Positions 25,509-62,971 of a DNA stretch of 62,971 nt are shown here, piece after piece. The notes under the pieces were generated by a model. The model made no database searches and had not been told where the DNA came from. It worked only from the letters and a program-made list of their open reading frames with translations. The stretch is taken from assembly GCA_017475965.1 (NCBI GenBank), contig JAFVEL010000019.1, positions 1 through 62,971 of the forward strand, read 5' to 3'. The position numbers and the translations under genes were made by a program. How positions within the stretch are numbered: position 1 is the first letter of the stretch; the number at the start of each line of letters is the position of its first letter. The DNA is from Alphaproteobacteria bacterium (GTDB lineage: Bacteria; Pseudomonadota; Alphaproteobacteria; RUG11792).

Positions 25509-26747
25509 ATGATATACAACAAATTTTTAACTGTAATAAGTACAACATTGCTAATTAATTTTAGTAATTCAAATGCATCTAGCTTTAAACAAGAATTTTT
25601 TAGTGGGGATATAGCAGATAATATACAGCATGACCAACAATATTGGAATGAGTGGTTACCAGTAATAAAATGTGATGCAAAAGAAACATTAAGAGATAGG
25701 TTTGAATATTGTACTAATTGGTTAATAAACTTATTAGAATCAAAACCATTCTATAATAAAATTATTCCGTTTAATTATGAATATGATTATGATATTAAAG
25801 ATATCAATGATGTTATCGATATTAAAAAATTAAAAGAAGAAATTGCAATACGTAAAATATTATTAGATGATATTGAACATAAATGTAAATTAAATGGTAA
25901 TGCTTGGAGTGAAATACCATTAATAATAAATGGTTATAATAAAGAACATCAAAGAAAGATAGGATCACATTTACAATGGGATTGTAGATTATTACATAAT
26001 CATTGGTCTATGAGTTTTGATAGAAATTATGATAATATTAAGCTAAACTTTTATCCATCATATGAATATCAAGAACCAGCATTTTATCTAAAAACTCTAA
26101 ATTCAGAGAAAACATTAAGTATTTGTTTAAGTGGAATAGAAATGGATTTATTAACAAGTAATAATTCCACCAGTAATACAGACTTATTCGCTAACTATTT
26201 GATTAATAGAAAAGATAATCAAGCTGCTACTGAAATAGCGAGATATCAAAAATATTTTACAAAGGAACAAAATGCATTGTTAGCGAGTCATATAATTTCA
26301 TACTATTTGTCATTTAAAAATGATAAAAAACAGAAAGTAGCTAAGTACTTACTAGAGAATTATATATTAAAAGATTTATTTAAAAGTATGAAACCAAAGC
26401 AATTCTTATCGTACGTTAAAAATGTAAAAACTGATGATTGGTACGAAGTAATTATATCAAAATATTTAGATAATGAATTTGGCACAGAGTATAATAAGAG
26501 TTACTTATCTTCCTTAAAGAAAATGACCTTACAATATAAAAAAGAGTTTGAAAATATTGTTTTACCTATGATTCGCAAATATACAACTGTAATATTTAAT
26601 AAATTAGTAACAAAACATAATAATTTAATTGCAAAACGACCAAATAATGATGATGATATTGTAAGAAATAGAATAAAAGCACTATTCGCAGCAGGCACTG
26701 GTAATGGAAGAATAATTGATAATGTAATGAGTTATGTAAAAATTTAA
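25509..26747 (+). CDS. hypothetical secreted protein (orphan)
   Basis: AAAGGGG lies upstream of the ATG. Signal peptide MIYNKFLTVISTTLLINFSNSNA. 412-aa uninterrupted frame. I recognise no family. Confidence 0.6.
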   Translation: MIYNKFLTVISTTLLINFSNSNASSFKQEFFSGDIADNIQHDQQYWNEWLPVIKCDAKETLRDRFEYCTNWLINLLESKPFYNKIIPFNYEYDYDIKDINDVIDIKKLKEEIAIRKILLDDIEHKCKLNGNAWSEIPLIINGYNKEHQRKIGSHLQWDCRLLHNHWSMSFDRNYDNIKLNFYPSYEYQEPAFYLKTLNSEKTLSICLSGIEMDLLTSNNSTSNTDLFANYLINRKDNQAATEIARYQKYFTKEQNALLASHIISYYLSFKNDKKQKVAKYLLENYILKDLFKSMKPKQFLSYVKNVKTDDWYEVIISKYLDNEFGTEYNKSYLSSLKKMTLQYKKEFENIVLPMIRKYTTVIFNKLVTKHNNLIAKRPNNDDDIVRNRIKALFAAGTGNGRIIDNVMSYVKI

Positions 26748-26909: not shown

Positions 26910-26986
<77 letters not shown>

Positions 26987-26989
26987 ATA

Positions 26990-28015
26990 ATGTCCTGGTT
27001 ACAATCATTATTAAAAAAGTATCATAAAAAAAAAACAAAACAAATACAATACAAAACACTTATTGAAACATTAACATTTGAACCACATAAGTTTTCATTA
27101 GTAAAAGCATTAGATTTATCAAATTTATATTCTGACACATTAATAATAAAAAATAGTTTAAGTTTTAGTTCAAAATATTCAACTATACAAAAAGTAGAAG
27201 GAGTAAAAGAGGGATACATAGAATTATATACTAATTTCCCTAGTATAATTGGTATAAATGGAACATTGCCAGATATATATGTTGAAAAATACTCATTATA
27301 TAATCTTTATACAAAAGAAGCAATAAGAGATTTTTTTGATATCTTTCATAGTTGTGGCATTAATGCTTTTTATAAAATATCAAAACAATATAATCCATCT
27401 TGTTCCAATAATATTTCTTATAAATCATTTATTGGAAAGATATTATTACAATTATCCGGATATAGTAGTGCAGAAGAATTTTATGAAGCAATTCATAATA
27501 CTAATATTCCAATGCAATTACCAATATCAACACACAACTTATTCTGGAATGAAAATAGATCAGCGTATGGATTGAAATTATTACTGTCAAGTTTTTTCAA
27601 TGTTAATATAGAAGTTCAAGAATTCTGTGAAAAACTAATAGAGTTACCAGTTGATGAACAAACTAGAATAGGTACTACTCATGGAAAATATAATAAACTT
27701 GGAATATCATCAATTCTAGATAGATTCAGTTGGGATACAACTTCTAGAATAATGGTAATAGTTGGACCATTACAATTTGAAAAATATATACAGTTTTTAC
27801 CTAAAATAAATAATCAAGATAGAAAATTTTCATTATTACAAAAAATGGAGGAACTAATAAAATTATATGTTCCATTTGATATTGAAGTGTATCTTAAAAT
27901 AATACTGGATACAAGTATTGTAAATGGAACATTCTTAAATAGATCAAAAGCACTCAATAAAGATTCCTTCTTATTTGGTAAAACTAAAGATATTTGTTTT
28001 GTAAAACTATTGTAG
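26990..28015 (+). CDS. tssG: type VI secretion baseplate subunit TssG-like
   Basis: Ordered blocks match the conserved TssG (ImpH/VasB) blocks. They are GINGTLPDIYVEKY, FFDIFHSCGINAFYKISKQYNP, ELPVDEQTRIG, LGISSILDRFSWDTTSRIMVIVGPLQFEKYIQFLP and LIKLYVPFDIEVYLKIIL. The first 10 codons of the ORF-track entry (26960) overlap the tRNA and are discarded. Confidence 0.82.
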   Translation: MSWLQSLLKKYHKKKTKQIQYKTLIETLTFEPHKFSLVKALDLSNLYSDTLIIKNSLSFSSKYSTIQKVEGVKEGYIELYTNFPSIIGINGTLPDIYVEKYSLYNLYTKEAIRDFFDIFHSCGINAFYKISKQYNPSCSNNISYKSFIGKILLQLSGYSSAEEFYEAIHNTNIPMQLPISTHNLFWNENRSAYGLKLLLSSFFNVNIEVQEFCEKLIELPVDEQTRIGTTHGKYNKLGISSILDRFSWDTTSRIMVIVGPLQFEKYIQFLPKINNQDRKFSLLQKMEELIKLYVPFDIEVYLKIILDTSIVNGTFLNRSKALNKDSFLFGKTKDICFVKLL

Positions 28016-28635: not shown

Positions 28636-29511
28636 TTATTTGATCGATATATTATTTTCCTTTATAATATTGTCAAGTTCGTGAATATTAAACATCTTTT
28701 TAATTGTATTTAATTGTTTATAAGCAATTCTTTGTTTTGTTTCAAAATTTTCAATATTTGGAAAAAGCATTTGAAAGTTTAATCCATTCATACAGACATT
28801 CCAATCGTATAATATTATTGCTAAATTTGCAATTATTTTGAATATCTCATTATTATTTAATACTTCTATTTTTTTATTAATATTGAATTTAGATTTAAAT
28901 AATATTTTTTCTACATCAAAATTATTATTCGCAGCTTTGCCATATATTTTTTCATAAATGTCAAATATAATGTTATGAAAAATATTAGTGTAATCATTGG
29001 TATTCCAATTATAATTTACGATCACATTCAAGTAATCAATTAGTTGATTATAGTATTCTTTATATTGATTAATATAAATGTTTTGATTATTTAACTGCAT
29101 TATGTAATTATGGATACTTGCCATTTTCCACAATTTTTCACTTTGTAATTTCTTATTAATTAATTTTTGTATATTATCACATTTAGTTCTTATTGTAAAT
29201 AAAATTGGATTTGCTTTGCTTCTATTACGAGTACTACTGGCTGTTATATTATATTTATTTGCTTCTAAGTTATGAGAATCTAATTTTCTTTTTTTTGTAA
29301 TGAAATCATGATTTAAAGACACATTGTCATCTGTATTGGTTTTTTCTTCCAAAATAATTTCATTCTTATTAATTTGATTGATAGCATTTGTACAAATATT
29401 TAAATTACTTTCTATTATATCATTATGTTCATTAGCGTTAAAATTATCTATTGCATGACTTACAGACACTAATGCAATACTGCATAATATTATAAATATT
29501 TTCTTTGCCAT
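28636..29511 (-). CDS. hypothetical secreted protein (orphan, Asn-rich helical)
   Basis: The ATG at 29511 is preceded by AGGAGG at a 6-nt spacing. Signal peptide MAKKIFIILCSIALVSVSHA. Contains the shared ICT...DFITKKRKLDS module. The ORF track extends to a GTG at 29550. Confidence 0.65.
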   Translation of the reverse strand: MAKKIFIILCSIALVSVSHAIDNFNANEHNDIIESNLNICTNAINQINKNEIILEEKTNTDDNVSLNHDFITKKRKLDSHNLEANKYNITASSTRNRSKANPILFTIRTKCDNIQKLINKKLQSEKLWKMASIHNYIMQLNNQNIYINQYKEYYNQLIDYLNVIVNYNWNTNDYTNIFHNIIFDIYEKIYGKAANNNFDVEKILFKSKFNINKKIEVLNNNEIFKIIANLAIILYDWNVCMNGLNFQMLFPNIENFETKQRIAYKQLNTIKKMFNIHELDNIIKENNISIK

Positions 29512-29843
29512 AAAATTCCTCCTAGTAAAATTTTTAAAATTACTTAACACATAAAATATTATTAAACAGAATAATGACTAAATGCAATCAAAAATTTCAC
29601 ATGTCCTTTAAATAAAATAACAATATAATCAGATTAAATAAATCCAAGTATATAGTTTATAATTAGATACTAATAACTTAATATTTTTAATACTTTATTG
29701 CACATATTTCAATCATTATTACAATTAATGTTTTTCTTATTTTTTTACAATTTCAAAAACTTGTATTAATATATTACACAATATTTGTGAATTTAGATTA
29801 AGATTTATTATAGAACCATTGCACCACTCCGTATCTTGTAGTG

Positions 29844-41415: not shown

Positions 41416-42834
41416 TTGCCTACAATTAATAATAATATTCAAGAAATACATCTAATAAATTGTAAAGAATTATCCAGTATAGATTTTAGTAAGTACACTA
41501 GTGTAAAAAAAATATGTATGTATGGAAATACTTTGGAAAAATCCACTGAAGCCCAATGGAAAACAATGATAGAACAGCTATATACATTATCAACTAACAT
41601 TACCAAACAAGAGCAACAGAAAATAGCATTTTTTGCGATCCCTAAAACTATTACTGTGTCAGCATCATTAAAACATATTCAATTGCCTAGGACTTATACT
41701 GGAGAAATTCCAAAGAACAGTAATTCATCACAATCACAAATACAATATTTATCAGCATTGGGAGCAACATCTGTAGCTCAAGATGCGTTTAAAGACCAGC
41801 AAGCACTAACAGAACTGTATTTACCAAATGTTAGAGAAGTAAAATCTAATGCATTTTATCATTGCTTTAAAATAGAGAAAGTGTCTCTTGATAAATGTGA
41901 AGTATTAGAAGAAGGAGCATTTAGAACAAATAGAGCATTACAAAGCATGTACTTACCATTAGTAAAAAAACTTGGAAAACTATCAATAGCATATACTAGA
42001 AGTAATAAATTAAAGATAGGTGACTTAAATAATCAAGAATTTAAATCTCAAAGTGAAGCAGGATTATATTTACCATTCTGTGAAGAAATAGGAGACGGTG
42101 CATGCAGGGGAGATAATGAAGATAAAGTACAAATTGTCAATGTTAATTGTCCAGTATGTAAAACTCTAGGAGTGGAAGCATTTAGGCAATTAACAGCATT
42201 AAAAATAGTTAATATACCAGAGGTAGAAACTATTGGTCAATCTGCATTTGAAGATTGTAGTTTACTAACAAAAGTTGGAGATATTAATGATATATCAAAT
42301 AATTCAATATATCTTCCTAAAGTAAAATCAATAGCAAATTACGCATTTAAAAATGGAGATAAAGGTCAAAATATCATTATACAGTCTATTATATTACCAG
42401 AATGCGAAAGAATTGGGAGAGAAGCATTTATGAGATATAGAACAATGAAAACATTATCGATACCAAAATGTAAATCAATAGGTATTCTATCGTTCTATGA
42501 TCCATATAAGTTACAAGAACTTGAAGCTACCGAACTGGAAACAATCGGGGCAAATGCATTCCAATATGCTAGTGTACCAATACGCAGTTTTAAAACAGTA
42601 AATGGAAATAAAAAAATTGATAATGGATATTTAGAATTGCCAAATTGTAAAAAAATAGAAACAAAGGCATTCTGGGGCAGTGGTGCACATTCTATCAGAG
42701 GAACCAATGTAGTAAAATTACCAAAGTGTGAGAGTGCGGCTGATGATTCATTCCGTGCTGCATATCTAACAACTCTAGATGCATCAAAATTAAGTAATAG
42801 GGCAAAAATATTATCTACTAGTAAATCTGGTTAG
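41416..42834 (+). CDS. BspA-type leucine-rich-repeat protein, 3' segment of the interrupted gene
   Basis: Repeats of the form (I/V)..(N/D)AF..C..L..(V/I).LP.(V/C)..(I/L)G..AF occur about 10 times. Examples are SVAQDAFKDQQALTELYLPNVREVKSNAFYHC and ETIGQSAFEDCSLLTKV. The only start is a TTG, and the frame is open back to 41233. Confidence 0.7.
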   Translation: MPTINNNIQEIHLINCKELSSIDFSKYTSVKKICMYGNTLEKSTEAQWKTMIEQLYTLSTNITKQEQQKIAFFAIPKTITVSASLKHIQLPRTYTGEIPKNSNSSQSQIQYLSALGATSVAQDAFKDQQALTELYLPNVREVKSNAFYHCFKIEKVSLDKCEVLEEGAFRTNRALQSMYLPLVKKLGKLSIAYTRSNKLKIGDLNNQEFKSQSEAGLYLPFCEEIGDGACRGDNEDKVQIVNVNCPVCKTLGVEAFRQLTALKIVNIPEVETIGQSAFEDCSLLTKVGDINDISNNSIYLPKVKSIANYAFKNGDKGQNIIIQSIILPECERIGREAFMRYRTMKTLSIPKCKSIGILSFYDPYKLQELEATELETIGANAFQYASVPIRSFKTVNGNKKIDNGYLELPNCKKIETKAFWGSGAHSIRGTNVVKLPKCESAADDSFRAAYLTTLDASKLSNRAKILSTSKSG

Positions 42835-44358: not shown

Positions 44359-44937
44359 TTATTCTCTATAAACAGTGTTACTATTATACGTATTTAAAGA
44401 TTTTAACTTCAATTCTGCTTCCTTTTTACATATTAATATGTATTCCCTCAAATCTTTTATATCATCATTTTTTGATGCTTTATCAAGCCAATATATTGCT
44501 TTTCGTAATGTTTTACTGGATTTACTATACTTAAAGTAAACTGCACCAGCATTGAATTGAGCAGCACCATTTCCCATCTTTGCTGCCTTGACATAACATC
44601 TTAGAGCTTCCTTATGGTTTTTCTTTCTTATATCTCCGGAATAATATCCATCTCCTATAGAATTAATAGCTTCTGGAGAACCCATTTTCGAGGCTTTTGT
44701 TAAATAAATATCAGCATTTTTAAAATCTTTCTCAGATAAGTAAATTGTACCTAGTAAATAGCAACAATAAGCATTATGTATATTTCTTTGTAAATACTGC
44801 TTAGCTATTTTTGATTTATGAGGTAGTAGTTCAAAAATATAATTATCTATAGATTCTTTATTAGTATTATTTGTATTTGAAGCCGGCAATACATTACTAG
44901 TTATCAATAATAATATCAACAAAATTTTCAGTTTCAT
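44359..44937 (-). CDS. Sel1-repeat (TPR-like) secreted protein
   Basis: Signal peptide MKLKILLILLLITSNVLPA. Sel1-type repeats include AINSIGDGYYSGDIRKKNHKEALRCYVKAAKMGNGAAQFNAGAVY and LRKAIYWLDKASKN. Confidence 0.8.
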   Translation of the reverse strand: MKLKILLILLLITSNVLPASNTNNTNKESIDNYIFELLPHKSKIAKQYLQRNIHNAYCCYLLGTIYLSEKDFKNADIYLTKASKMGSPEAINSIGDGYYSGDIRKKNHKEALRCYVKAAKMGNGAAQFNAGAVYFKYSKSSKTLRKAIYWLDKASKNDDIKDLREYILICKKEAELKLKSLNTYNSNTVYRE

Positions 44938-47814: not shown

Positions 47815-48185
47815 AGATGGAGGGATTCTGTTGATCGGTTCCCTCCACACCGCATAACGTTACTGTTATTTTAACATAACAGCACTGCAATAGTTAAATT
47901 TGTCTTAAACAAGAACAATATTTACTATTAAGCAGCTTTCGTTTTTGCAACTTTCCTTTTCCTATTACGGTTGGCTGCTATACGAATTACGTTGCCTTTT
48001 CTATTTAAATTGGCATTTATATTGTTTTTAGCCCGATAACGACGGATACCATGCCGAGTGAAAAATAAACCTTTAATTCTTTATGTCGAACCTATTTCGT
48101 CCCCATATAATAAAAAATGGTGGAGACGCAGGGTACCGCCCCCTGGTCCATAAAGACTATTCCGTAAACCTTTTATCACTATAGT
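47815..48185 (-). ncRNA. ssrA: two-piece (circularly permuted) tmRNA
   Basis: On the minus strand the acceptor piece ends ...GGACCAGGGGGCGGTACCCTGCGTCTCCACCA (CCA at 48120..48118). A 13-nt spacer follows. The coding piece then starts GGGGACGAAATAGGTTCGAC at 48104. GGGGACG pairs with CGTCTCC, giving G3:U70. ATAAAG/CTTTAT forms the P2 helix. The tag frame is 48014..47928. The 3' hairpin GGAGGGA...TCCCTCC lies at 47819..47846. Confidence 0.88.
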
Positions 48186-49906
48186 ACCAATGTACAATAA
48201 TATTGTAACATGAATTGAAAAAATATACAATAGTAATCTATCCATATTTAATTTTTTGCATTAATGTAACACAGTATAGTTATTGTGATTATATTTATTT
48301 AATAATTATTGTTTGGCTGACGTTTACTAATCTAATATTGTTCCAATTCCTTGGTATATTGCACAGATTATACGTTTTCTTATTCATGTGTTCTTGTTTT
48401 ATTATTTTGTCAATTAATTTTATGATGAATTGTCCTCATAGGTAGTATTATTAAAATTACTCTTGCAATTGGAACCATATTCACAATTATTAAGCAAATT
48501 ATTTTAAGAAAAGTCATTATTACAACAACCAATATTATTAGAATATTTAATATTATTCCAAGTATACTTTAGACAAGGGTAATATTAATTATTTTTGCTA
48601 AGATTGTTATTAATATTATTTTAATATGTAAAATAATTAGGCACTCATTTTAATTTTAATGCTACATGTTATCATATACTGCTAATATTACCAGAATAAG
48701 TAAAAGTATTATTATTTACTCGGCGGTAATTTTTATTACTGATAAATTTATCCAGTTAGCTTCTATTTAGTTTGATGTATTATTTTCGATTTGATTATTT
48801 AATATTTGCAATTTTGTATTATCCATTGTTTAATGTTTAATTCTTTTATTGGGAAATATTTTTTTATTACAATGGTAATATTGCCAAGTTATGTATTTAA
48901 CTTATTGTACTATTACAGTTATTTTATTATATTCCACAGTTATAATAGCTTTTTTTATAATATTTTATGTTAAAAATAGTACATATGTGCCCAAATGATC
49001 GTAATCATATTTTGATATATTTTTATTAAAATGTTATTTTTATTAAAATTGGTATTATGAATTGGGAAATTATTGAAATTGTGAAAATTTACTGTGTGGT
49101 AATATTTAGTAATGTTTTGCACGATATTTATGAAGATATCTAAAGTATTTTCTGGTATAGAGATTATTATAATTATCATGAATAATGTTTCCATAGTTAA
49201 TGTTGGGTAGCGAAGAAGCATTAATGTAATACTTTCAATAGTTGCGATACTTAACATAATAAATTTTTTCTCATGTTATTATATTCCAATTTAAGTTATC
49301 TACTTGTATTGTAGATGAAGCAAATTAAGGAATTGTGGAGAAATATTGTAGATGCAATAGCATATTAGTTATAGTAAATCCATTATAACTAACATTTAAT
49401 ATCATGTAGTGTAGTAAAAATTCTATACACATATTAAATAATACAATAATTTTGTTCTATTACATATCTTCGTAATTCAAAAATTCCATTGCAATGCTGT
49501 AATATTTTCCACATAATTTGTAAGCAATCTCCAATATTTGAGTCCCTCCTTCATACTATTCATGATGCTTCACGTCATCAACGAAATATTTTCATAAATA
49601 CGCAACTATATCTTTTGTATATAAATCCTGTTGTTCATTACTAAAATGAGAAGTAATACTATTTACAGCTACATTTTTATTGCACTTCAATAATTATTCA
49701 CTAGCATTTACCATATAATGTCCTATTGTTGTAAATATTAAACTTATCATTAATTAATAACTTTAAATTACTAATATAAATAAAATACTTCCTATTATTA
49801 TACTAATACATATCAAAAAAAAACAAGAGGAAAAATAATATTTACTTATATTTTTTGTATTATAATAATATCTTATCTCATATTTTCTAGGTATTTATTT
49901 AAATAT

Positions 49907-51895
49907 TTAATTTTCTTTATGCAATTTTTTATATATTATTTCATCATCACATTTCGGACAGTATTCATGTTCTCCAGCTAAGTATCCATGTTTAGGACAT
50001 ATGGAAAATGTTGGTGTTACTGTAATATATGGTATTTTATATTTGCTTAAAACTTTTCTAACTAGATTCTTACATGCTGTGCCACTGGACATTCTTTCTC
50101 CCATGTACAAATGCACTACTGTTCCTCCAGTGTATTTTCTCTGCAATTCCTCTTGATGATCTAACGCCTCGAATAAATCATCAGTATATCCAACTGGTAA
50201 TTGTGAAGAATTAGTATAATAATGAGAATTATTAGCAACGTTATTTCCAGCTTGTATTATGTCGGGATATCTCTTTTTGTCTTCTCTAGCAAATCTATAC
50301 ATACAGCCTTCAGCTGGTGTTGCTTCTAGATTATATAAATGTCCAGTTTGGACTTGAAATTTAACTAGTTTAGCTCTAATAAAATCTAACACTTTTATTG
50401 CTAATTCTTTGCCTTCGTGGTCAGATATGTCATGTTTATCATTAGTGAAATTCCTTACCATTTCATTAATTCCATTAACACCAATGGTCGAAAAGTGATT
50501 CTTAAATGTTCCTAAGTATCTCTTAGTATATGGATATAATCCTTTATTCATTAATTCAACTACAGTATTTCTTTTGGTTTCTAAACAAGATTTAGATAAT
50601 TCCAATAATTCTTCTAAATGATTATATAATAATTGTAAGTTACCTTTATGTAAATATCCCAATCTAGCACAATTTATAGTTACAACTCCTACTGAACCAG
50701 TTTGTTCAGCTGATCCGAATAATCCATTTCCCCTCTTAAGTAATTCTCTTAAATCTAATTGCAATCTACAACACATTGATCTTATCATATTTGGAGATAA
50801 ATCAGAATTAACAAAATTCTGAAAGTAAGGAATACCATACTTAGCTGTCATTTCAAATAGTAAATCGGTATTTTCTCCATCCCAGTTGAAATCCTTAGTT
50901 ATATTATATGTAGGTATTGGGAAAGTAAATATACGTCCTTTTGCATCTCCATCAATCATAGTTTGTATAAATGCCTTGTTTATAATGTCCATTTCTTTTT
51001 GAAGATCACCATAAGTAAAATCAACTTCTGTACCACCTATTATTGGATGTTCATCTCTCAATCCTTCTGGACAAGTCCAATCTAAAGTAACATTACTAAA
51101 TGGTGTCTGAGTCCCCCAACGTGTTGGGACATTCATATTAAATATAAACGATTGTATACAATGATATACCTCATCATAAGACATATTATCTATTTTAACA
51201 AAAGGGGCTAAATAAGTATCAAAACTACTAAATGCTTGTGCTCCTGCCCATTCATTTTGTAATGTACCAAGGAAATTAACCATTTGCCCAAGAGCAGTAG
51301 ATAAATGCTTCGGAGGAGTGGATTCTATTTTTCCAACTACTCCATTAAAACCTTCAGTTAAAAGCATTTTGAGTGACCACCCAGCACAGTATCCACTTAA
51401 CATATCCAAGTCATGAATATGCAAAAATCCTTCCACATGAGCTGCTGATACTTTGGGGTGATATACATTATTTAACCAATAATTTGCTATTACTTTACCA
51501 GAGAGATTTAATATTAGTCCACCTAACGAATAACCTAAATTAGCATTAGCATGAACTCTCCAATCTATATTATCTATATATTCTCTTACTGCATATCCGG
51601 CATTTATATTACCACCAGTACTATTTTTATTGGCATGAACATTTGCGTTATTATTAGTTTTTGCATTATTATTAATTAATGCTAATGTCTCTGCTATTAC
51701 TGAACTTATACTTTCTGCTTTTACTTTTATATCAGATGCAGTATCTTCAAGTTTTGATATTACTAAATTAGTTAATCCATTTATTTCCAATGGATTTGTT
51801 TTAGTAGCTTTGTGTATTGTATTAATAATTTTCTCTTTATTAAAATTTTCAATTAAACCATTTCGTTTTATTACATAAGATATATTTTGTTTCAT
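49907..51895 (-). CDS. nrdD: anaerobic (class III) ribonucleoside-triphosphate reductase NrdD-like, C-terminally short
   Basis: ATP-cone YVIKRNGLIENFNKEKI, then FLHIHDLD, RSMCCRL, GSVGVVTINCARL, LYNLEATPAE, YYTNSS, and Zn ribbon CPKHGYLAGEHEYCPKC. The ORF stops 15 aa after the last Cys with no R..GY motif. Confidence 0.85.
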   Translation of the reverse strand: MKQNISYVIKRNGLIENFNKEKIINTIHKATKTNPLEINGLTNLVISKLEDTASDIKVKAESISSVIAETLALINNNAKTNNNANVHANKNSTGGNINAGYAVREYIDNIDWRVHANANLGYSLGGLILNLSGKVIANYWLNNVYHPKVSAAHVEGFLHIHDLDMLSGYCAGWSLKMLLTEGFNGVVGKIESTPPKHLSTALGQMVNFLGTLQNEWAGAQAFSSFDTYLAPFVKIDNMSYDEVYHCIQSFIFNMNVPTRWGTQTPFSNVTLDWTCPEGLRDEHPIIGGTEVDFTYGDLQKEMDIINKAFIQTMIDGDAKGRIFTFPIPTYNITKDFNWDGENTDLLFEMTAKYGIPYFQNFVNSDLSPNMIRSMCCRLQLDLRELLKRGNGLFGSAEQTGSVGVVTINCARLGYLHKGNLQLLYNHLEELLELSKSCLETKRNTVVELMNKGLYPYTKRYLGTFKNHFSTIGVNGINEMVRNFTNDKHDISDHEGKELAIKVLDFIRAKLVKFQVQTGHLYNLEATPAEGCMYRFAREDKKRYPDIIQAGNNVANNSHYYTNSSQLPVGYTDDLFEALDHQEELQRKYTGGTVVHLYMGERMSSGTACKNLVRKVLSKYKIPYITVTPTFSICPKHGYLAGEHEYCPKCDDEIIYKKLHKEN

Positions 51896-53780: not shown

Positions 53781-56750
53781 TTATTCTTGGTTGTTCTTTA
53801 ATTTGTTTATCTTATATTGTATTACATCAAGAAATAGTTTTTTTACAGGACCTTTTTCATAATTTTTTATGTCTTTTGTACACTCATACAGTTGTTCAAT
53901 AATTTTCTTAAAAAATTTAACATCTTCTGACTCGTTGTTTATTTGATTATTAGTAAAAGGCATATCAATATTGAAATTTTTATTTCTTTTGAACTCACAA
54001 TCCAGAAATTTGTTAGAATTGTCAATTGCGAATTTCATCGCATCATACTGTAATTTAAATAATATCTTTGAATTTTCATCATTCGAATTACGCTTATTTA
54101 TTACGTAATCAAGTGTGGAAATTAATGTATTTTCAAAATGCTGAGCCATTGTATCATAATATATTGTAATTTCTGGATTGTTTTCATTACAATAATATAA
54201 TGTATTTGCGTCTAAAAATCTAGCTACAAAATTCCTAATAAATGGTGTTTTATTTATTGTTTTTAGGAACTTGTTATTATTATATACTATTGATTCATAA
54301 TACTCATTAATATTTGAAAATATTTGACTGTTAATATTATTTTGAAATTTTTTCAATGCTGTATTGGTGTCATTTGATAGTGTTATTTCATTTTCAATAC
54401 TTCTTGAGGTACAATTGATTATAAGATTTTGCCATGATGTATTATAATTTTTTTGTAAGCATGTATCGATTATATTATTAATATCGGGATTGTTTTTTAT
54501 CTTTGGTAGTTGTAATGCTTGCAACTGCCATTGTTTGTTTTGTTGAATTTTATTGTTTAATTTCTGAACTTCTATAATGTAATAAATAGTATCTAATATC
54601 TTTTTAATATCTGTATAATTAACATCTTGTTCATTTCCAGGTGTTGATCCATTATTTTGTTTTATATTGTTATTAAATTGTTTTACAATATTATTATTCC
54701 AATAATTTAGCAATTTTAATAATACGTAGTTATTATGTAAATTAGTACCATTAATATTATTACTATCTGTGAATCGTATATTATTTAATAGTGTTGTTTT
54801 ATCTAACAAAATATTATCTCTTTCTTTCTGTGTATTAATTGCATTTTGCTTATTGATTTCATCGGAAATTTTCTCAAATATGTCATCGAATTTCTCGTTA
54901 GAAATTGTCATATTACCGTTCTTATTCTTCTTATTTTTCTTTTTATTATGAAATTTTTTATCTTTATTATCTAAGATATTTAACTTTTGATTTTGTATTG
55001 TATTATTATTTATTTTGTTATTTTCTTCTTGTGTGTTGTGTTCAGGTTCGGGAACATACAGTTGCTCTTCTTTAGAATAAACCAATTTACCGAAATTCAA
55101 TGCGTTGTGATTATTATTTGTCTTTATTTCCTTTTCCTCTTCTGTTGTATCTTCATTTGCATGTTCTTTCATATAATTGTTATTGGTATTAAGCATAGTT
55201 TGTTCAAGTTTCTCTCTAGTTTCTGAATTTATACATATATCATTATTAAATATTTGTTTGGGATTTATTGTTTCATTATTTTCAATATTTTTTATATTAT
55301 TTAAACTTACGTCTTTTGTAATGTCATTTGGTGTATTAATTAAATTTATTGCTGTTTTATATTCATTATTTATATTGTCATATATTACTTCAGGTTCATT
55401 TTGCTGCACTTCATCTTTAACATAAATTGTTTTTCCATTTTTTTGTACTACTGTTCTAAATTCATACTCATTTTCACTGCTATTGTTTAGTGGAATTCTA
55501 CTACTATTATTATTAATATTTACTGTATTTTTATAGTTATTTTTTTTGTAATATTGATTGCTTTTATCGGATTTATTTGTTTTGTTATATTTATAATGTT
55601 GTTTCTTGTTGTATTTATTCCTTTTAGATTTTATTTTTTGTTCTGAAAGCATTATATTGTCGTTTTTTTCTTGCTCTTCTTCTACAGATTTTGAATTTAA
55701 TAATTCCGCTAGATTCTTTGGTTTTTGTTGTATTTTATTTGGTTTAGTTTTATTGTCCATACTGTTTTGTGTTAATATTGTATTTTCGTTTTCAATTTGA
55801 TTAGTTTTCATTTGATCTATTCCTATACTTTGAAGTACATATTTTGTTCCATCTTTTGTATTATTAATATCAAAATTATTACTTGCACTTTGATTAATAT
55901 TGTTTTCAATTGTGTTATTGTTAAACAATTGATTTATTTGCATACTCAGCATATTACACATTAATTCATTACACTGTGCTAACGATCTCATTATATTAAG
56001 TTGTTGATTATATAAATATATGTTCTGTTGCGAATTATGTGCGATTTGGTGAAGCTGACCAATTGTATTACAATTCGAGGATATTTTATTTATTAATAAA
56101 TCTATATTCGTTGTGTTGTTTTGATAAGTATAATTATTTGATATGTCTAACAACATTTGATTTTTTGGAATATATGGTTTTGCATCTAGATTCTTTTTTA
56201 CATGATTAAAATCGGTTCTTTGCTGTACTTTCCAATTTAAATTATTATTATTGTTTTTCCAGTTTGTATCTTCTATTTCAAAGTAGTGTTTATTATCTAT
56301 ATTGGGATAGTGTTTATTATTTTTATGCATTTTATATTTATTAAATTTTATTTTATTATTTTTATATGTATTGTTTTTTAATTTTGGATATTCTGTTGTT
56401 TCTGTAATGGTTTCGATTACATTATGAAATGCATCATTATTATTTTTGAATTCACCACCAGGTGTTTCTTTATTTCCTTCTTCATCGCTACTACTTATAT
56501 CCTCATATATATTTTTTAAACTATATTCTGCTTTATTATTACTATTTATTACATTACTGTATTGGGCAATATTCCTATTGTATGTTGTATTAAAACCCAA
56601 ATCTAAATTAAAGTTTGTGGTATTAATAATGGCATTAGGATCTAATTGTAAATCATTATTGTTATATGTGCTTGCATCCATTCCAATTGCTTGGTAATTA
56701 TTCACTATTATAGCTATTGGCAAGAGTTTTAATAAATTTTTTATACTCAT
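53781..56750 (-). CDS. giant Asn/Lys-rich secreted orphan protein (989 aa)
   Basis: Signal-like MSIKNLLKLLPIAIIVNNYQAIG. 989 uninterrupted codons in a stop-rich AT context. The middle is low complexity and the C-terminal third is more complex. No family recognised. Confidence 0.65.
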   Translation of the reverse strand: MSIKNLLKLLPIAIIVNNYQAIGMDASTYNNNDLQLDPNAIINTTNFNLDLGFNTTYNRNIAQYSNVINSNNKAEYSLKNIYEDISSSDEEGNKETPGGEFKNNNDAFHNVIETITETTEYPKLKNNTYKNNKIKFNKYKMHKNNKHYPNIDNKHYFEIEDTNWKNNNNNLNWKVQQRTDFNHVKKNLDAKPYIPKNQMLLDISNNYTYQNNTTNIDLLINKISSNCNTIGQLHQIAHNSQQNIYLYNQQLNIMRSLAQCNELMCNMLSMQINQLFNNNTIENNINQSASNNFDINNTKDGTKYVLQSIGIDQMKTNQIENENTILTQNSMDNKTKPNKIQQKPKNLAELLNSKSVEEEQEKNDNIMLSEQKIKSKRNKYNKKQHYKYNKTNKSDKSNQYYKKNNYKNTVNINNNSSRIPLNNSSENEYEFRTVVQKNGKTIYVKDEVQQNEPEVIYDNINNEYKTAINLINTPNDITKDVSLNNIKNIENNETINPKQIFNNDICINSETREKLEQTMLNTNNNYMKEHANEDTTEEEKEIKTNNNHNALNFGKLVYSKEEQLYVPEPEHNTQEENNKINNNTIQNQKLNILDNKDKKFHNKKKNKKNKNGNMTISNEKFDDIFEKISDEINKQNAINTQKERDNILLDKTTLLNNIRFTDSNNINGTNLHNNYVLLKLLNYWNNNIVKQFNNNIKQNNGSTPGNEQDVNYTDIKKILDTIYYIIEVQKLNNKIQQNKQWQLQALQLPKIKNNPDINNIIDTCLQKNYNTSWQNLIINCTSRSIENEITLSNDTNTALKKFQNNINSQIFSNINEYYESIVYNNNKFLKTINKTPFIRNFVARFLDANTLYYCNENNPEITIYYDTMAQHFENTLISTLDYVINKRNSNDENSKILFKLQYDAMKFAIDNSNKFLDCEFKRNKNFNIDMPFTNNQINNESEDVKFFKKIIEQLYECTKDIKNYEKGPVKKLFLDVIQYKINKLKNNQE

Positions 56751-56944: not shown

Positions 56945-58060
56945 TTGTCAAATAAATTTTACATAATAATTATTATAATACTATGTAATACAATTGTAGG
57001 ATGCAAGAATAAAAAAAATATAAATATTAATACTATAATATCTAGTAATTTAATTCAAGATATAATAAACGAAGTAAAAGAAAATTATGTAGAAATCATT
57101 AGTAATGAAACATTAGAAATAAATGCTATTAATGGAATAATTAATTCATTAGATGAATATTCTAGATATATTACTAAAGAAGAATTTGATTTTATAAATA
57201 AATCTACTAGAGGAGTATTTCTAGGTATAGGTATTGAAATTAATAAATTAAAAGATGGTATAGAAATTAAATCTGTACTAAAAAATAGTCCAGCATCCAA
57301 TATAGGATTAAAAAAGGGAGACATAATTATCTCAATAGATAATACAAATATAAATCATCTTTCAATGAAACACATAATAAATATATTGAATAATAATAGT
57401 AAATTACAGTATAAACTGACAATATTGCGTGATAAAGCAAATACAATAGAACTAGTGCTAAAGAAAGACATAATAAAATTAAATAGTATCAATACTCACA
57501 TAATAGACAATATATTAATGTTGAATATTTCATTTTTCAATGAAGATACAGTACGTGAAACAATAGAACAAATAAATAAATTACGCTACAAAAACATCAA
57601 AGGAATAATAATAGATTTAAGAAATAACCCAGGTGGATGTATTAATGATGCCATTGATTTTTGTGATTTATTCTTGTGTAATAAAACAATTACCATTATA
57701 AAACACAGAAAAAATAACAAATCTGAAATAATACAATCAAATAATAATGACATTACAAATGATATACCAATAGTAATATTAATTAATTCTCAAACTGCTT
57801 CTTGTGCAGAATTAGTAGCAGCTGCATTAGCAGATAACAAACGAGCTATACTAATAGGAGAAAAAACATATGGTAAAGGAGCAATCCAATCCATTATACC
57901 TATTCCAGGAAGAGGAGCATTACAACTAACTACTGCTTATTTCTACTCTCCAAATGGAAAGGAAATTAATAAAAATGGAGTAGAACCCAATATAAATATC
58001 ATTCAATCTAATGATAATGATCAAATGTTGATAAAATCAATAGAAATATTAACTAAATAA
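56945..58060 (+). CDS. ctpA: carboxy-terminal processing peptidase (S41, Ctp/Prc family), lipoprotein
   Basis: TTG start and lipobox ILCNTIVGC. PDZ domain GIGIEI..LKDGIEIKSVLKNSPASNIGLKKGDIIISID. S41 motifs IIIDLRNNPGG, NSQTASCAELVAAAL and GEKTYGKG. Confidence 0.88.
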   Translation: MSNKFYIIIIIILCNTIVGCKNKKNININTIISSNLIQDIINEVKENYVEIISNETLEINAINGIINSLDEYSRYITKEEFDFINKSTRGVFLGIGIEINKLKDGIEIKSVLKNSPASNIGLKKGDIIISIDNTNINHLSMKHIINILNNNSKLQYKLTILRDKANTIELVLKKDIIKLNSINTHIIDNILMLNISFFNEDTVRETIEQINKLRYKNIKGIIIDLRNNPGGCINDAIDFCDLFLCNKTITIIKHRKNNKSEIIQSNNNDITNDIPIVILINSQTASCAELVAAALADNKRAILIGEKTYGKGAIQSIIPIPGRGALQLTTAYFYSPNGKEINKNGVEPNINIIQSNDNDQMLIKSIEILTK

Positions 58061-58291: not shown

Positions 58292-59149
58292 TTGAATTAC
58301 ATAAGACATAGAATATTAAGTATATTATTACTCATTAGTGTTGGTTTTGGCCAAGATATAGATGATAAACATTTTGATTCATATATATCAATTAAATATA
58401 ATACTATAAAAGCATTATCTGAAAATATAGAATTTAATCCAGTAACATTATTAAATATTACAACCAGTGTTCCAAATTTTAATAATGTAAAAATACTTCC
58501 AATATCTCCAAATAATATATTAAATAATACGCCAATAATTCCCAGTAATATATATAATACTAAAAATGAAAATACACTTTTAGATAACAAATTATTAGCA
58601 CCAGTACATGATGAAAAGCCAGTAAAATCACAATTAAAACAAGTAAAACACAAGATTGATAAATCACATTTAAAAATAAAGCAGAAACAAACTACTAAAA
58701 AATATCCTGTGAAAAATTCATCAATAAAAGGATTAATAGCACAAGCAGAATCAAAAAAGAATATCCCATCTGGATTACTAAAGGCAATAGGACTGGTTGA
58801 GTCTAAATTGCAACCATACGTAATTAACTATCATGGTAGAGGATATTCATTTAGAAACAAAAGTGAAGCTACAAACTTTGCTAATAATCTAATTAGACAA
58901 GGAAAAACGAATTTTTCAGTAGGATGTTTTCAATTACATTACCAATCTCATGCAAAACAATTTAAATCTGTAAGTGCAATGTTAGAACCGTCTAAAAATA
59001 TAGAATATGCTTCTAAATTATTAAAGCAATTATATAAAAATAATGGTTATAAATGGTCAAATGCAGTAAAAAGATATCATTCTAATATAGATTCTCGCAA
59101 TAATATATATTATGCTAAAGTTACAAATAAATTAGGTAGATACGTATAA
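58292..59149 (+). CDS. lytic transglycosylase (SLT domain, IagB/VirB1-like)
   Basis: The C-terminal domain reads IPSGLLKAIGLVESKLQPYVIN...GKTNFSVGCFQLHYQSH...IEYASKLLKQLY. It shows a catalytic E-S and a G..Q pattern. TTG start and signal-like N terminus. Confidence 0.7.
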   Translation: MNYIRHRILSILLLISVGFGQDIDDKHFDSYISIKYNTIKALSENIEFNPVTLLNITTSVPNFNNVKILPISPNNILNNTPIIPSNIYNTKNENTLLDNKLLAPVHDEKPVKSQLKQVKHKIDKSHLKIKQKQTTKKYPVKNSSIKGLIAQAESKKNIPSGLLKAIGLVESKLQPYVINYHGRGYSFRNKSEATNFANNLIRQGKTNFSVGCFQLHYQSHAKQFKSVSAMLEPSKNIEYASKLLKQLYKNNGYKWSNAVKRYHSNIDSRNNIYYAKVTNKLGRYV

Positions 59150-59243
59150 TAAATTAATTTATTTATTACTAAGTATAACAAAGTAATGAAAGTATAATGA
59201 ATCTATATTATATATAATAGAGAGAATATTAAACTGTAATTAA

Positions 59244-60086
59244 ATGTTTAGGAAAATTATATTATATGCAAAGGTAGCAAGAATACAGGCTCTATTAATG
59301 TCTGTCTTACCTTGTATATTATCATATGTTTATTGTACAAGGTACTATAATAATACCAATCTGAATTTAATTGCATTTGTTTTTACTTGCATATCATTTA
59401 CTTTATTTAATCTTGCTGTTAATACTATTTCAGAATATAGAGATTGTATTAAGGGAATAGACAATCCTAATTCTCCAGGAACAAAATATAGACTAGTAAC
59501 TGGTATTGTTCCAAAAAAGAATGTGTTAAGAATCGGAATAGTAGCATTTATAATTGCTAGCATATGTGGTATTTTTGCATTATATTATTCCTCATTTCAT
59601 TTATTAATACCAGGAATAATGGGAGCTAGTATTGCACTATTTTATAGTGAATTTCCATTTAAATTGAAATACAGAGCATTAGGAGAAGTATGTGTATTTA
59701 TATGTTATGGATTACTATTAGGATTTTCAACTGTATTTGCATTAACTAACAATTGTAATGTAGTAGATATAATTACCTTTATACCAGGAGGATTATTAAT
59801 TACATGTGTTATACTTGCAAATAATATAAGAGACTACTATTTTGATTTAAGAAAAACAAATACAATAGTAACAAAACTTGGATTAAAAAAATCATATGTT
59901 ATTTTGTATACACTAGCTAGTTTATCCTTTGTAATAAATTGTATATTAGGATACTATGTTGTATTATTATCATATCCAATATTACTAATATCTTTGAAAT
60001 TCAAAGGACATCCAAAATTCATAAACTTTTTTGGTGTTTTGTTTTTTATAAGTGAAATGCTTATTATTTCTTATTTATTAATATAA
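59244..60086 (+). CDS. menA: 1,4-dihydroxy-2-naphthoate polyprenyltransferase (UbiA family, MenA-like)
   Basis: NTISEYRDCIKGIDN matches the MenA pattern N.Y.D..KG.D. ANNIRDYYFDLRKTNTIVTKLG matches NN.RD...D...GK.TL...LG. It has 8-9 TM segments. Confidence 0.78.
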   Translation: MFRKIILYAKVARIQALLMSVLPCILSYVYCTRYYNNTNLNLIAFVFTCISFTLFNLAVNTISEYRDCIKGIDNPNSPGTKYRLVTGIVPKKNVLRIGIVAFIIASICGIFALYYSSFHLLIPGIMGASIALFYSEFPFKLKYRALGEVCVFICYGLLLGFSTVFALTNNCNVVDIITFIPGGLLITCVILANNIRDYYFDLRKTNTIVTKLGLKKSYVILYTLASLSFVINCILGYYVVLLSYPILLISLKFKGHPKFINFFGVLFFISEMLIISYLLI

Positions 60087-60466
60087 ATATTGCTCCTGAA
60101 ATATTCTGAATAATTATATATAGTAAAAATAATATTAAAACTAATATTTTGTTTTTGATTATTAATGGTCAAATTTTCAATATGACAATCTTTTATTCTT
60201 GGTTCATGTAACATAATACATTGTTTTATATTATCAGATAATTGTTCTAATTTATCCATTTTATTGATATTATCAAAAGCTAATAAATCTAATATTCCAT
60301 AGTTAAATGGATTATTTTTAGTTCCTTTAAAATCTTTTATATTGATTGGTAATCTTAATCTAGTAGATAATATATTATATATTTCCGAAATTATAGATTT
60401 ACCAAATTCATTTACATCTTTTAAATATGTACTATTATTGAATTTATCAAAAAATGACCTATCCAA
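60071..60466 (-). CDS. tssE: type VI secretion baseplate subunit TssE-like (gp25 family)
   Basis: SFFDKF N terminus, IISEIYNILSTRLRL, NYGILDLLAF, IKQCIMLHEPRIKDCHIENL and ISFNIIFTI. These match the order and spacing of TssE/gp25 blocks (SL.eRL; I...L..LLNTR.G; YGLPDl; I...I..fEPRL..v.V; L.F.I.a.l). Confidence 0.75.
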   Translation of the reverse strand: MDRSFFDKFNNSTYLKDVNEFGKSIISEIYNILSTRLRLPINIKDFKGTKNNPFNYGILDLLAFDNINKMDKLEQLSDNIKQCIMLHEPRIKDCHIENLTINNQKQNISFNIIFTIYNYSEYFRSNIYINK

Positions 60467-60668
60467 ATTGGAGTTATTTTGAAAGTATTATTATATAATA
60501 TATTATATTATAATATTGTTTTTTTATAAACAAAAGTGATAATAAAATTATCACAATGTAAGTTTGTATTCTGTAATTTTTAAGGTGAATTTATTTTACA
60601 AATTTATATTATATAAAAGATAATATTAAGATAATCTATAAAATATTGTAGATGTGATATACTGTCTA

Positions 60669-61175
60669 TCACAATTTATTTTCATTATAGTTTGTATATA
60701 AATACAAAGTAATAGATAGACTATGCATCCAAAATATAAATGACGATACAATAAAACTAAATAATGTCATGGATATGCCAAATATTTTAAAATTAACAGT
60801 ATCACAAGGTGGTCTTGTATTTTTTATTAGTTGTGTTGTACTCTGTAGTTCTTGAAGAGTAGGTAGTATTGTTTTACATTTTTCTGGAGCAAACCACCAA
60901 TGATTTTCAACTCCTAAGTGATAAAAACTAAAAATTAATACAAAAATTATCGAAATTAGTGGTAAAAATACAACATTTTTTTTATCAATATAATATAAAG
61001 TAAAAATGCAACCTATACTAACAATTAAAAATCCATAACGTGTGAATAAACACAATAAACATGGAATTTTATCAAACAATACTTGTGATACTAATGATGA
61101 AATGAAACAAAATAATGATATTAATAAAATAAATCTTAAGTTATTTTTATAATTTATTAACTTAATTATCCACAT
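60669..61175 (-). CDS. dsbB: disulfide bond formation protein B (DsbB family)
   Basis: 4 TM segments. First loop IPCLLCLFTRYG (C..C...R). LGVENHWWF. Second Cys pair EKC...RPPCD. Confidence 0.78.
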   Translation of the reverse strand: MWIIKLINYKNNLRFILLISLFCFISSLVSQVLFDKIPCLLCLFTRYGFLIVSIGCIFTLYYIDKKNVVFLPLISIIFVLIFSFYHLGVENHWWFAPEKCKTILPTLQELQSTTQLIKNTRPPCDTVNFKIFGISMTLFSFIVSSFIFWMHSLSITLYLYTNYNENKL

Positions 61176-61839
61176 GTATAAAACCCACCCTGAAATTCTT
61201 GTACCTCATGATAATATAAAACATTTTTTTTAAGAATTAGTTAATATTAACTATTGCATCTTAACAATCCATGCTACACTGAACATGAGGACATAAGAAA
61301 CTCACTAAAAAAAAATACAAACTCTGCCTATTCCAATTAAGGGGTTTTTAGAGAACTTGGAATAGGCCAATGAATAAAATGTCTTCTATAATTAGAACCA
61401 CTATTAATACACTAAGGGGTTTTTAGAATGTGCAAATTTAAATAAGTTCTAATATTTATATGATTTCGTCAAACAGATGTAGACTATTAATATCAACTCT
61501 GTTTCATCAAAATCACTTTTATTTTAACACTTTGTTAATAAACAATGCAAGCATTTTTTTTAAGAAAGTAAAAAATTTTTTATTTGTAATGAAATTAACT
61601 CTGAATAGTAGCAAAATAATGCTTATAAAAATTTAGTTCCATATTGAAGATATAAAGATTATTCACCACAACACCAATATATTATTGGAGGAGAATAGCT
61701 TTATTTTACACTAAATAAATAAAAATACATCTGTATCTTATTGGAACAAATATGAAATTATAATAAGTAAACAATATATTGTAATGATATGTATTATATG
61801 TTACAAGATATGTAGGGGGAGTTAATTTATTTAATCAAA

Positions 61840-62556
61840 ATGAAGAATACTTCATGTAAAATTGTTTTGTCTTTTATTTTTTTACTACAAATTATTAATG
61901 TTAATTATGGTTATAGTAGTAATTATGAAATGATACATGGCGAATATTGCACATTACATGTTAATTATAATAATTACAAAGATGAGATACAAAATAATAA
62001 TCCATCATGGTTGGATAGTATGAATACTTGTAATAATAGTTATAATGAATATTTTAAAGAACAACGTAATACTAAATACATTGAATCACTCATTAAAGAT
62101 ATTGGGAAAAATTCATTACCTGAGATTGAAGTTATTAATACAAGTACACAAACTATTGCTGATATTGTTAAAGATGAAATACAAACAATTGAGTTTAATA
62201 AACTCACTATAGATACTGATTGGTATACAAAACCAGGAGGTGGTAATAGTCAGAATACATTCGAATCAAAATGTAATATAACGTACGATGGTGGCACTTG
62301 CTGTAGCGTTAATATCAGTAAAAAATCCTGTTGTGATTTCTTTACCAATATGTTTAATAAAATAAAATCATTTATACTTCCCAAAAGAAAACGAGTTGAA
62401 TTAAAGAATTTATATGATTCTGAATATTTAACTGCTGAGTTAAAGAAGAATGTAGATGAAATAATTAATGATTCTAAAAAACAACTGGAGCAGTTTGTTA
62501 AAAATTATTATACCAAGATACCAAATACATTATCAGAAAAAGAAAAACAACAATAA
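61840..62556 (+). CDS. secreted Cys-rich orphan protein
   Basis: Signal peptide MKNTSCKIVLSFIFLLQIINVNYG. Cys cluster KCNITYDGGTCCSVNISKKSCCDFF, then a charged helical tail. Confidence 0.6.
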   Translation: MKNTSCKIVLSFIFLLQIINVNYGYSSNYEMIHGEYCTLHVNYNNYKDEIQNNNPSWLDSMNTCNNSYNEYFKEQRNTKYIESLIKDIGKNSLPEIEVINTSTQTIADIVKDEIQTIEFNKLTIDTDWYTKPGGGNSQNTFESKCNITYDGGTCCSVNISKKSCCDFFTNMFNKIKSFILPKRKRVELKNLYDSEYLTAELKKNVDEIINDSKKQLEQFVKNYYTKIPNTLSEKEKQQ

Positions 62557-62971
62557 TTGTTTTTTATGAAAATCACTTGTGACATAATTAATTATTAAGT
62601 GAATTTGATATTATCATTCATAGTGCTTTAATTTCTTTTGTAAAAAAAATAGTAGTATTAATCTCCAATTTATATATGAATATTATTACAATGTATTTGG
62701 ATTTTTTATGGGATTTTTTATTTCTCCCACATTCTCGTATGGATATAGTATAATAGAATATATAAAATATAGAATGTAATATAGATGTAAAATGACAGAA
62801 GAAAGTAAATTATATAAGTTAACACCAACTATGGATTTTGTATGTATATTTGTTATATAAAATAACAAAACAAATACATCTTATTTGTGATATAAATTTA
62901 ATTTTACATGGTATATCACTCACAAAATCAAATGATAATATATTTAACAATGTAGATTTTGTGTAGGTCAA

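Follow-up and report, generated by a model that had tools for sequence, protein, structure and literature searches.

The gene that is the subject of this study lies near the end of a stretch of 62,971 nucleotides (nt), hereafter called the window, from the contig JAFVEL010000019.1 of the alphaproteobacterial assembly GCA_017475965.1. Its open reading frame (ORF) encodes a protein of 131 amino acids (aa) which, judged from profile matches and a modelled fold, is a short and divergent TssE-type homologue of gp25, and the gene is designated here as tssE. It is quite likely that its product represents the functional TssE of a type VI secretion system (T6SS) with genes scattered over the genome in the way known for the Holosporales. 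The evidence consists of the family membership and fold of the protein, the purifying selection acting on its gene, the recurrent position of tssE directly behind dsbB and the presence of an intact tssG on the same contig.

Family membership, fold and sequence motifs

The TssE/gp25 assignment proposed in a preliminary description of the window, made from the sequence without database searches, was borne out by profile hidden Markov models (HMMs). The protein exceeds the gathering cut-off of the Pfam family GPW_gp25 (PF04965), scoring 36.0 bits against the 27.2 required (E 6e-9, profile positions 5-92 of 96), and the only NCBIfam family it matches is the TssE family TIGR03357 (E 3.3e-11). All the blocks quoted in that description—SFFDKF, IISEIYNILSTRLRL, NYGILDLLAF, IKQCIMLHEPRIKDCHIENL and ISFNIIFTI—are present in the 131-aa frame. 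An exhaustive profile search among 1.8 billion sequences gathered 41 representatives of the subfamily at E<=1e-3, most of them 116-139 aa long. One cluster member is named 'GPW/gp25 family protein [Alphaproteobacteria bacterium]'. An alignment-based scan of metagenome contigs turned up no relatives. TIGR03357 is matched at E<=1e-3 by 43/43 aligned subfamily members (best E 7.7e-35), and the subfamily profile, when broadened, merges into more than 3000 TssE-family proteins, the named ones being TssE or ImpF. With Pfam, two re-scanned relatives fell below the threshold or gave no match. The motifs NILSxR, YG(I/L)xD and EPR are kept across the subfamily; in the alignment of 43 sequences, G57 and R90 are invariant, and E88 and P89 are conserved in at least 90%.

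The AlphaFold2 model, built on the same 43-sequence subfamily alignment, reached a predicted local distance difference test (pLDDT) score of 84.3 and a predicted template modelling (pTM) score of 0.76. The top matches found for it by Foldseek in the PDB are two structures of T4 gp25 labelled 'sheath polymerization initiator' (5iv5_BD, E 2.6e-6, and 5iw9_A, E 4.3e-6; template modelling (TM) scores 0.58-0.63), followed at lower rank by a Geobacter gp25-like protein, IraD (6od1_B, E 0.011) and Afp9. Concerning the sequence, its best PDB match is the T6SS protein TssE (6gj1_D, E 8e-7), the EPR tripeptides of both proteins being paired with each other in the HMM alignment. In the same search, Afp9 and Pvc9 appear at E 3e-3, i.e. 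about three orders of magnitude weaker than TssE. A baseplate protein of a Streptomyces contractile injection system likewise figures among the weak matches of the fold and sequence searches. The PHROG search gave no phage gp25 or baseplate match for the protein.

In comparison with the canonical representatives—the Sci-1 TssE of enteroaggregative Escherichia coli (6GJ1; TIGR03357) and T4 gp25 (5IW9)—the protein from the window shows the same single-domain gp25 fold (TM ~0.6) and the same succession of the NxLxTR, YGxxD and EPR motifs, its expected role being that of a wedge seeding sheath polymerisation. It differs from them, however, in being shorter (131 aa versus ~145-170 aa), in exhibiting an identity of only ~20-30% with canonical TssE and a score below the equivalog cut-off, and in not being encoded beside tssF/tssG or tssBC-hcp.

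Selection acting on tssE

Numerous metagenome assemblies from gut and rumen contain orthologues of TssE, with identities of 62-82%. The ratio of nonsynonymous to synonymous substitution rates (dN/dS) was obtained pairwise by the Nei-Gojobori method among relatives in which the amino-acid identity of TssE (64-76%) is like that of the products of the neighbouring genes. It spans 0.15-0.39 for tssE, 0.17-0.34 for dsbB, 0.15-0.26 for the protease gene ctpA and 0.11-0.22 for the prenyltransferase gene menA, the highest values of the five genes compared (0.29-0.57) belonging to a gene for a protein with an SLT domain. It should be noted that dS is probably underestimated at such an extreme AT bias, the comparison among neighbouring genes nevertheless staying valid. 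As estimated in this way, the constraint on tssE is about equal to that on the housekeeping genes around it, which argues strongly against its being a relic. None of the relatives, even at ~26% identity, has a disrupted tssE reading frame.

The dsbB-tssE pair

The gene context of tssE was sampled in progressively more distant members of the subfamily, 10 lineages, including the window itself, being informative. In eight of them, dsbB lies immediately upstream of tssE on the same strand, the most distant case corresponding to ~26% identity of TssE. The gene had been described as isolated, and this holds insofar as no T6SS gene adjoins tssE in any of the 10 sampled lineages; dsbB has, however, emerged as its conserved upstream neighbour.

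The spacing in the dsbB-linked relatives varies from a gap of 40 nt to an overlap of 41 nt. In the loci with closer relatedness to the window, the two genes are separated by 35 nt (L004, TssE 62% identical to that of the window) or 40 nt (L013, L011 and L014, all 63%), whereas they overlap, by 4-41 nt, in the more distant ones—14 nt in L015 (40%), 4 nt in both L016 and L017 (36%), 14 nt in L018 (37%), 4 nt in L020 (37%) and 41 nt in L021 (~26%). As for the two lineages without the pair, L006 and L007 have dsbB 2.2 kb upstream of tssE, on the opposite strand and separated from it by two orphan genes, and no dsbB is seen near tssE in L019. The sequence of the locus L008 ends 146 nt upstream of tssE and is therefore uninformative with regard to this linkage. 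Except for dsbB, all the flanking genes differ among the distant lineages, the GC content of the lineages ranging from 22 to 40%. The DsbB orthologues have all preserved the CxxC motif together with the second pair of cysteines. Scanning the orphan ORFs beside tssE in the relatives—two in L006, of 159 and 314 aa, and others in L004, L008 and L013—for hidden Hcp or TssB gave no match.

From this gene order, dsbB and tssE probably formed a transcription unit in the ancestor, with dsbB in first place. In the clade as a whole, tssE would accordingly be located outside a T6SS operon, forming with dsbB, behind which it follows with an overlap or at a distance of 35-40 nt in the relatives, a unit of two genes that would still be co-transcribed. 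No paper on a dsbB-tssE gene pair was found in the literature searched, the two papers that name both genes reporting no such pair, and the pairing is absent from the articles devoted to the T6SS of Holosporales (PMC8163844; PMC11909080). The conserved pairing is a modest new element, the rest of the layout being expected from the published arrangement.

Why dsbB might be co-expressed with a T6SS gene is suggested by work on Serratia marcescens (Mariano et al. 2018, PMC5792426), in which disulfides formed in dependence on DsbA stabilise TssM and help an active T6SS to assemble. The link known from Serratia between the T6SS and DsbA/DsbB is, however, biochemical and not genomic, with no dsbB-tssE operon described there; moreover, TssE is a cytoplasmic protein and no Dsb substrate, so that any connection in the present case is drawn from gene order only. 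If the pair were a selected unit and not an accident of packing, tssE would be translationally coupled to dsbB throughout a wide range of Holosporales-like symbionts (GC 22-40%), and the supply of TssE would be tied to the disulfide-forming capacity of the envelope, by which the periplasmic part of TssM is stabilised in Serratia. Such a true functional coupling is regarded here as rather unlikely, although not as negligible. The adjacency could equally have a mechanical cause, tssE simply using the promoter of dsbB, since overlapping genes are hard to separate.

In the relatives with at least 62% identity, tssE is positioned between dsbB and menA; in the distant lineages, menA is not adjacent. 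Under anaerobic conditions, DsbB is reoxidised by menaquinone, the quinone made through menA, and the two flanks of tssE are therefore linked functionally to each other, DsbB passing its electrons to menaquinone when oxygen is lacking. At 49907-51895, the window also encodes a ribonucleotide reductase of the anaerobic class III.

Dispersed T6SS genes in the window and in Holosporales

The TssG-like gene reported in the preliminary description 32 kb from tssE was confirmed as an intact tssG, the exact distance being 32,056 nt and both genes being embedded among housekeeping genes. That description had also stated that tssE normally adjoins tssF and tssG, a rule that fails for the Holosporales: Midha et al. 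(2021, PMC8163844) place their T6SS genes at four or more separate loci, tssE standing alone in Ca. Bodocaedibacter. Since this scattering has been published, a lone tssE 32 kb away from tssG is what would be expected here. The idea of a dispersed T6SS baseplate set in a reduced symbiont thus stands as far as the TssE family, the remote tssG and the AT-rich genome are concerned; what it does not provide is a new layout, the arrangement being already known for the group.

The closest published counterpart is Ca. Bodocaedibacter vickermanii, the complete genome of which contains a single annotated TssE (CPBP_00258), solitary and transcribed (PMC8163844, Suppl. Table 3), with the other loci lying at a great distance from it, namely tssF/G (00125/126), vgrG (00353/355), tssKLMA (00934-937) and tssBC-hcp (00985-987) (PMC8163844). 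The window resembles it in the solitary tssE and, more generally, resembles the dispersed systems of Paracaedibacteraceae, Caedimonadaceae and Ca. Bodocaedibacter in core genes split over loci in small host-dependent genomes. The differences consist in the base composition (22-28% GC versus 40.7% in Ca. Bodocaedibacter) and in the tssG-tssF block, published as a unit for Holosporales and broken or lost in the window, with the rest of the system unseen here. Almost all Holosporineae, even those with the smallest genomes, have kept the T6SS (PMC11909080), which is considered the most credible apparatus for host interaction in Holosporales symbionts (PMC11909080).

Concerning the remaining components, no Pfam match to TssF, TssB/C, Hcp, VgrG or TssK/L/M was obtained in the scan of the window, which covered ORFs from 110 aa upwards outside the region of 5.5-23 kb. 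For the part from 5.5 to 12.8 kb, the gene calls on a matching contig indicate genes for ribosomal proteins, the RNA polymerase alpha subunit, adenylate kinase and SecY. The matching ENA contig extends 7.2 kb beyond the start of the window, and this extension, occupied by an rRNA operon together with two orphans, has no T6SS gene. The gene tssG itself is flanked by two orphans with no Pfam match, one of 412 aa (25509-26747) and the other of 304 aa (28636-29550). The missing tssG-tssF block may reflect either further fragmentation, or a tssF too divergent for Pfam, or the loss of tssF.

Weighing the explanations

The preferred explanation assigns to the protein the role of a functional TssE in a scattered T6SS of the Holosporales type. 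It would sit on the baseplate made of TssF, TssG and TssK and start the polymerisation of the TssB/C sheath, the genes for the sheath, tube, spike and membrane complex presumably being located elsewhere in the genome. The organism would be a small, very AT-rich (~22-28% GC) Holosporales-like alphaproteobacterial symbiont, known from metagenomes of bovine gut and rumen, and the system would act on a eukaryotic, probably protist, host. Several observations weigh against this explanation. The score with TIGR03357, 42.9 bits, is lower than the NCBI equivalog cut-off of 53.2. Proteins of the gp25 fold have been recruited to other roles, one such protein, IraD, being found among the fold matches. 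In the ~70 kb inspected, no T6SS gene beyond tssG and tssE was seen, i.e. neither sheath, tube and spike nor TssF, TssK and the membrane complex, and TssF (PF05947) in particular was detected neither beside tssG nor elsewhere in the scanned set of window ORFs (110 aa or longer). The gene tssE starts with TTG and is preceded by no Shine-Dalgarno sequence, the TTG start being, however, present also in a lineage with 78% identity. Finally, no clear RNA run containing tssE was found and its transcription is unproven; the sole candidate (X3) is ambiguous, its depth being flat at ~7-8 and its contigs breaking where those of the DNA runs do, and it looks like a DNA metagenome.

The sub-threshold score and the IraD match could be understood if the protein were a co-opted paralogue, i.e. 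a member of a dsbB-linked gp25-like subfamily that has taken on another cytoplasmic role, as IraD of E. coli has in RssB regulation, perhaps one connected with Dsb proteins and the redox state of the envelope. The subfamily is indeed small and divergent, its members, with the 41 representatives mentioned above, being mostly 116-139 aa long in comparison with ~145-170 aa for canonical TssE, never standing beside a T6SS gene in the 10 sampled lineages and almost always following dsbB. IraD itself resembles the protein from the window in being a small protein of the gp25 fold encoded away from a contractile machine. Such a co-option is nevertheless improbable, because the hallmarks NILSxR, YG(I/L)xD and EPR have been kept across the subfamily, all members match TssE and only one matches IraD models, and, unlike for IraD, the protein from the window retains the TssE motifs and matches the TssE but not the IraD models. 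In addition, the same contig carries an intact tssG and a T6SS needs TssE, and the only annotated TssE of Ca. Bodocaedibacter is likewise solitary.

The want of adjacent T6SS genes, the tssG without tssF at its side, the TTG start without a Shine-Dalgarno sequence and the lack of expression evidence would also suit a relic without function, left in a shrinking genome by a decayed T6SS or prophage tail. This is very improbable in view of the frame kept intact in all relatives to ~26% identity, the dN/dS values comparable with those of dsbB and ctpA, the invariant functional motifs, the TTG start shared with the 78%-identical lineage and the absence of phage genes and PHROG matches. Since the gp25 fold is common to all contractile systems, an extracellular contractile injection system (eCIS) of the Afp/PVC type, or a T6SS-iv, might be envisaged in place of a canonical T6SS; the weak matches to Afp9, Pvc9 and the Streptomyces baseplate are in line with it, and other symbionts of rumen protists do carry eCIS (bioRxiv 10.1101/2025.07.29.667580). 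It is the TssE models and the TssE structure, however, that match best, far ahead of Afp9 and Pvc9, the partner baseplate gene fits the T6SS-specific TssG family (E 8e-37), and no Afp-type genes occur in the ~70 kb, so that this last possibility appears extremely remote.

Organisation of the locus

The coordinates of the features discussed are collected in Table 1. The envelope genes named in the preliminary description as neighbours of tssE—ctpA, the SLT gene, menA and dsbB—were all identified as claimed by Pfam and NCBIfam, the best NCBIfam matches of the menA ORF being 1,4-dihydroxy-2-naphthoate polyprenyltransferases. The Rfam search of the region 59000-62971 gave no match. On the other side of ctpA, the positions 53781-56750 are occupied by an orphan ORF of 989 aa, extremely rich in asparagine and lysine and without a Pfam match; its counterparts at the same position have 913 aa in L006 and 454 aa in L008, and it gives the impression of a large protein that evolves fast and is specific to its lineage.

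Table 1 Coordinates of tssE, tssG and the neighbouring features in the window
Feature	Position	Strand	Length	Assignment and remarks
tssG	26960-28015	+		PF06996 T6SS_TssG, E 8.2e-37, profile positions 4-296 of 304
ctpA	56945-58060			S41/PDZ Ctp protease (Pfam scan)
SLT-domain protein gene	58292-59149			generic SLT domain (Pfam), E 5.6e-11
menA	59244-60086	+		UbiA/MenA-type prenyltransferase, PF01040, E 9e-20; convergent on tssE
tssE/menA overlap	60071-60086		16 nt	3'-3' convergent overlap, from ORF coordinates
tssE	60071-60466	-	131 aa	predicted gp25-family T6SS baseplate wedge/sheath-initiator protein; TTG start, TAA stop
dsbB-tssE spacer	60467-60668	-	202 nt	
dsbB	60669-61175	-		PF02600, E 8e-20; upstream of tssE, same strand

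The convergent overlap of tssE with menA is present as described. In the relatives, the distance between the two genes amounts to -4, +5, +188 or +192 nt, and the C-termini of both TssE and MenA end at homologous positions, neither of them being extended; the 16-nt overlap is thus a lost spacer peculiar to the window lineage, in which the 3' end of tssE has been packed against menA. As a regulatory feature, the overlap was rejected, since it is not conserved in the relatives.

On the opposite side of tssE, the gap to dsbB in the window lineage exceeds the 40 nt that is the maximum in the dsbB-linked relatives. The region 60467-60712, which takes in the 3' end of dsbB, is an imperfect tandem duplication of ~118 nt, composed of direct repeats with a period of 118 nt, the two units of which are 64% identical (7/300 shuffles scoring as high). 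It is by this recent local duplication that the spacer has been enlarged to its present 202 nt in the window lineage. Each repeat unit contains one palindrome GTGATA-N7-TATCAC, at 60536-60554 and 60654-60672, these being the only two matches in 63 kb, with 0.23 expected. The motif was not found in the dsbB-tssE spacers of the relatives, and the palindromes were rejected as a conserved operator, as they are copies belonging to a lineage-specific duplication that the relatives do not have. No intrinsic terminator was predicted on the locus, and shuffled sequences contain promoter-like sites just as often, such a scan being uninformative in DNA so rich in AT.

As far as the SLT protein is concerned, it had been put forward as an IagB/VirB1-like enzyme dedicated to opening peptidoglycan for the T6SS. 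This idea finds no support: the protein scores 17.7 bits with the VirB1 model (cut-off 212) and 15.5 bits with the IagB model (cut-off 208), and its gene is on the strand opposite to tssE with menA between them. The linkage of the SLT gene, menA and tssE is limited to the close relatives (at least 62% identity), no SLT gene being present in the tssE neighbourhood of L016, L018, L019 and L020 (several kb of flank) or L021 (~1-2 kb of flank). Nothing ties the SLT protein to the T6SS. The genes murD, ftsW and uppP in the window indicate a peptidoglycan-containing cell, and a lytic transglycosylase would be needed by such a cell anyway.

Source organism and other features of the window

The loci related to the window come from the rumen metagenome-assembled genome RUG11792, labelled 'uncultured proteobacterium', and, with 62% identity, from a metagenome-assembled genome labelled 'uncultured Holosporaceae bacterium'; the sequence of the window itself is contained in bovine gut metagenome runs. 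At 47837-48210, ARAGORN predicts a permuted, i.e. two-piece, transfer-messenger RNA with an unusually long and very basic tag, ANLNRKGNVIRIAANRNRKRKVAKTKAA. Beyond position 1 of the window, the ENA contig k141_819549 (L022:1-4353) carries a 16S rRNA gene cut at the contig end, three spacer tRNAs and the genes for 23S and 5S rRNA. The usual spacer of an rRNA operon contains the pair of tRNAs for Ile and Ala, three being more than usual.

With regard to proteins that could meet a host, the window encodes a BspA-type leucine-rich-repeat protein (41416-42834; PF13306, E 1.6e-26) and a Sel1/TPR repeat protein (44359-44937). Both kinds of repeats are common in proteins interacting with eukaryotic hosts, and the two proteins may therefore be taken as candidate secreted effectors.

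It should be pointed out here that in the last part of the window, 62584-62971, the word depth rises 10- to 40-fold in three bovine-gut runs (in X2 from 33 to 430-1595), and all assemblies break at ~61785-61814 and at 62772. The end of the window is thus either repetitive or common to other organisms as well, and it may be an assembly join.

Significance

Were the coupling of tssE with dsbB real, it would represent an undescribed gating of T6SS assembly by the redox state of the envelope, in organisms from which dedicated T6SS regulators have been lost. Irrespective of that, the order of dsbB followed by tssE is a reproducible genomic marker, of use for finding and annotating the TssE proteins of the clade, which are short and divergent. 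The retention of tssE under purifying selection in a very reduced, AT-rich lineage associated with the rumen means that the machine is probably in use there.

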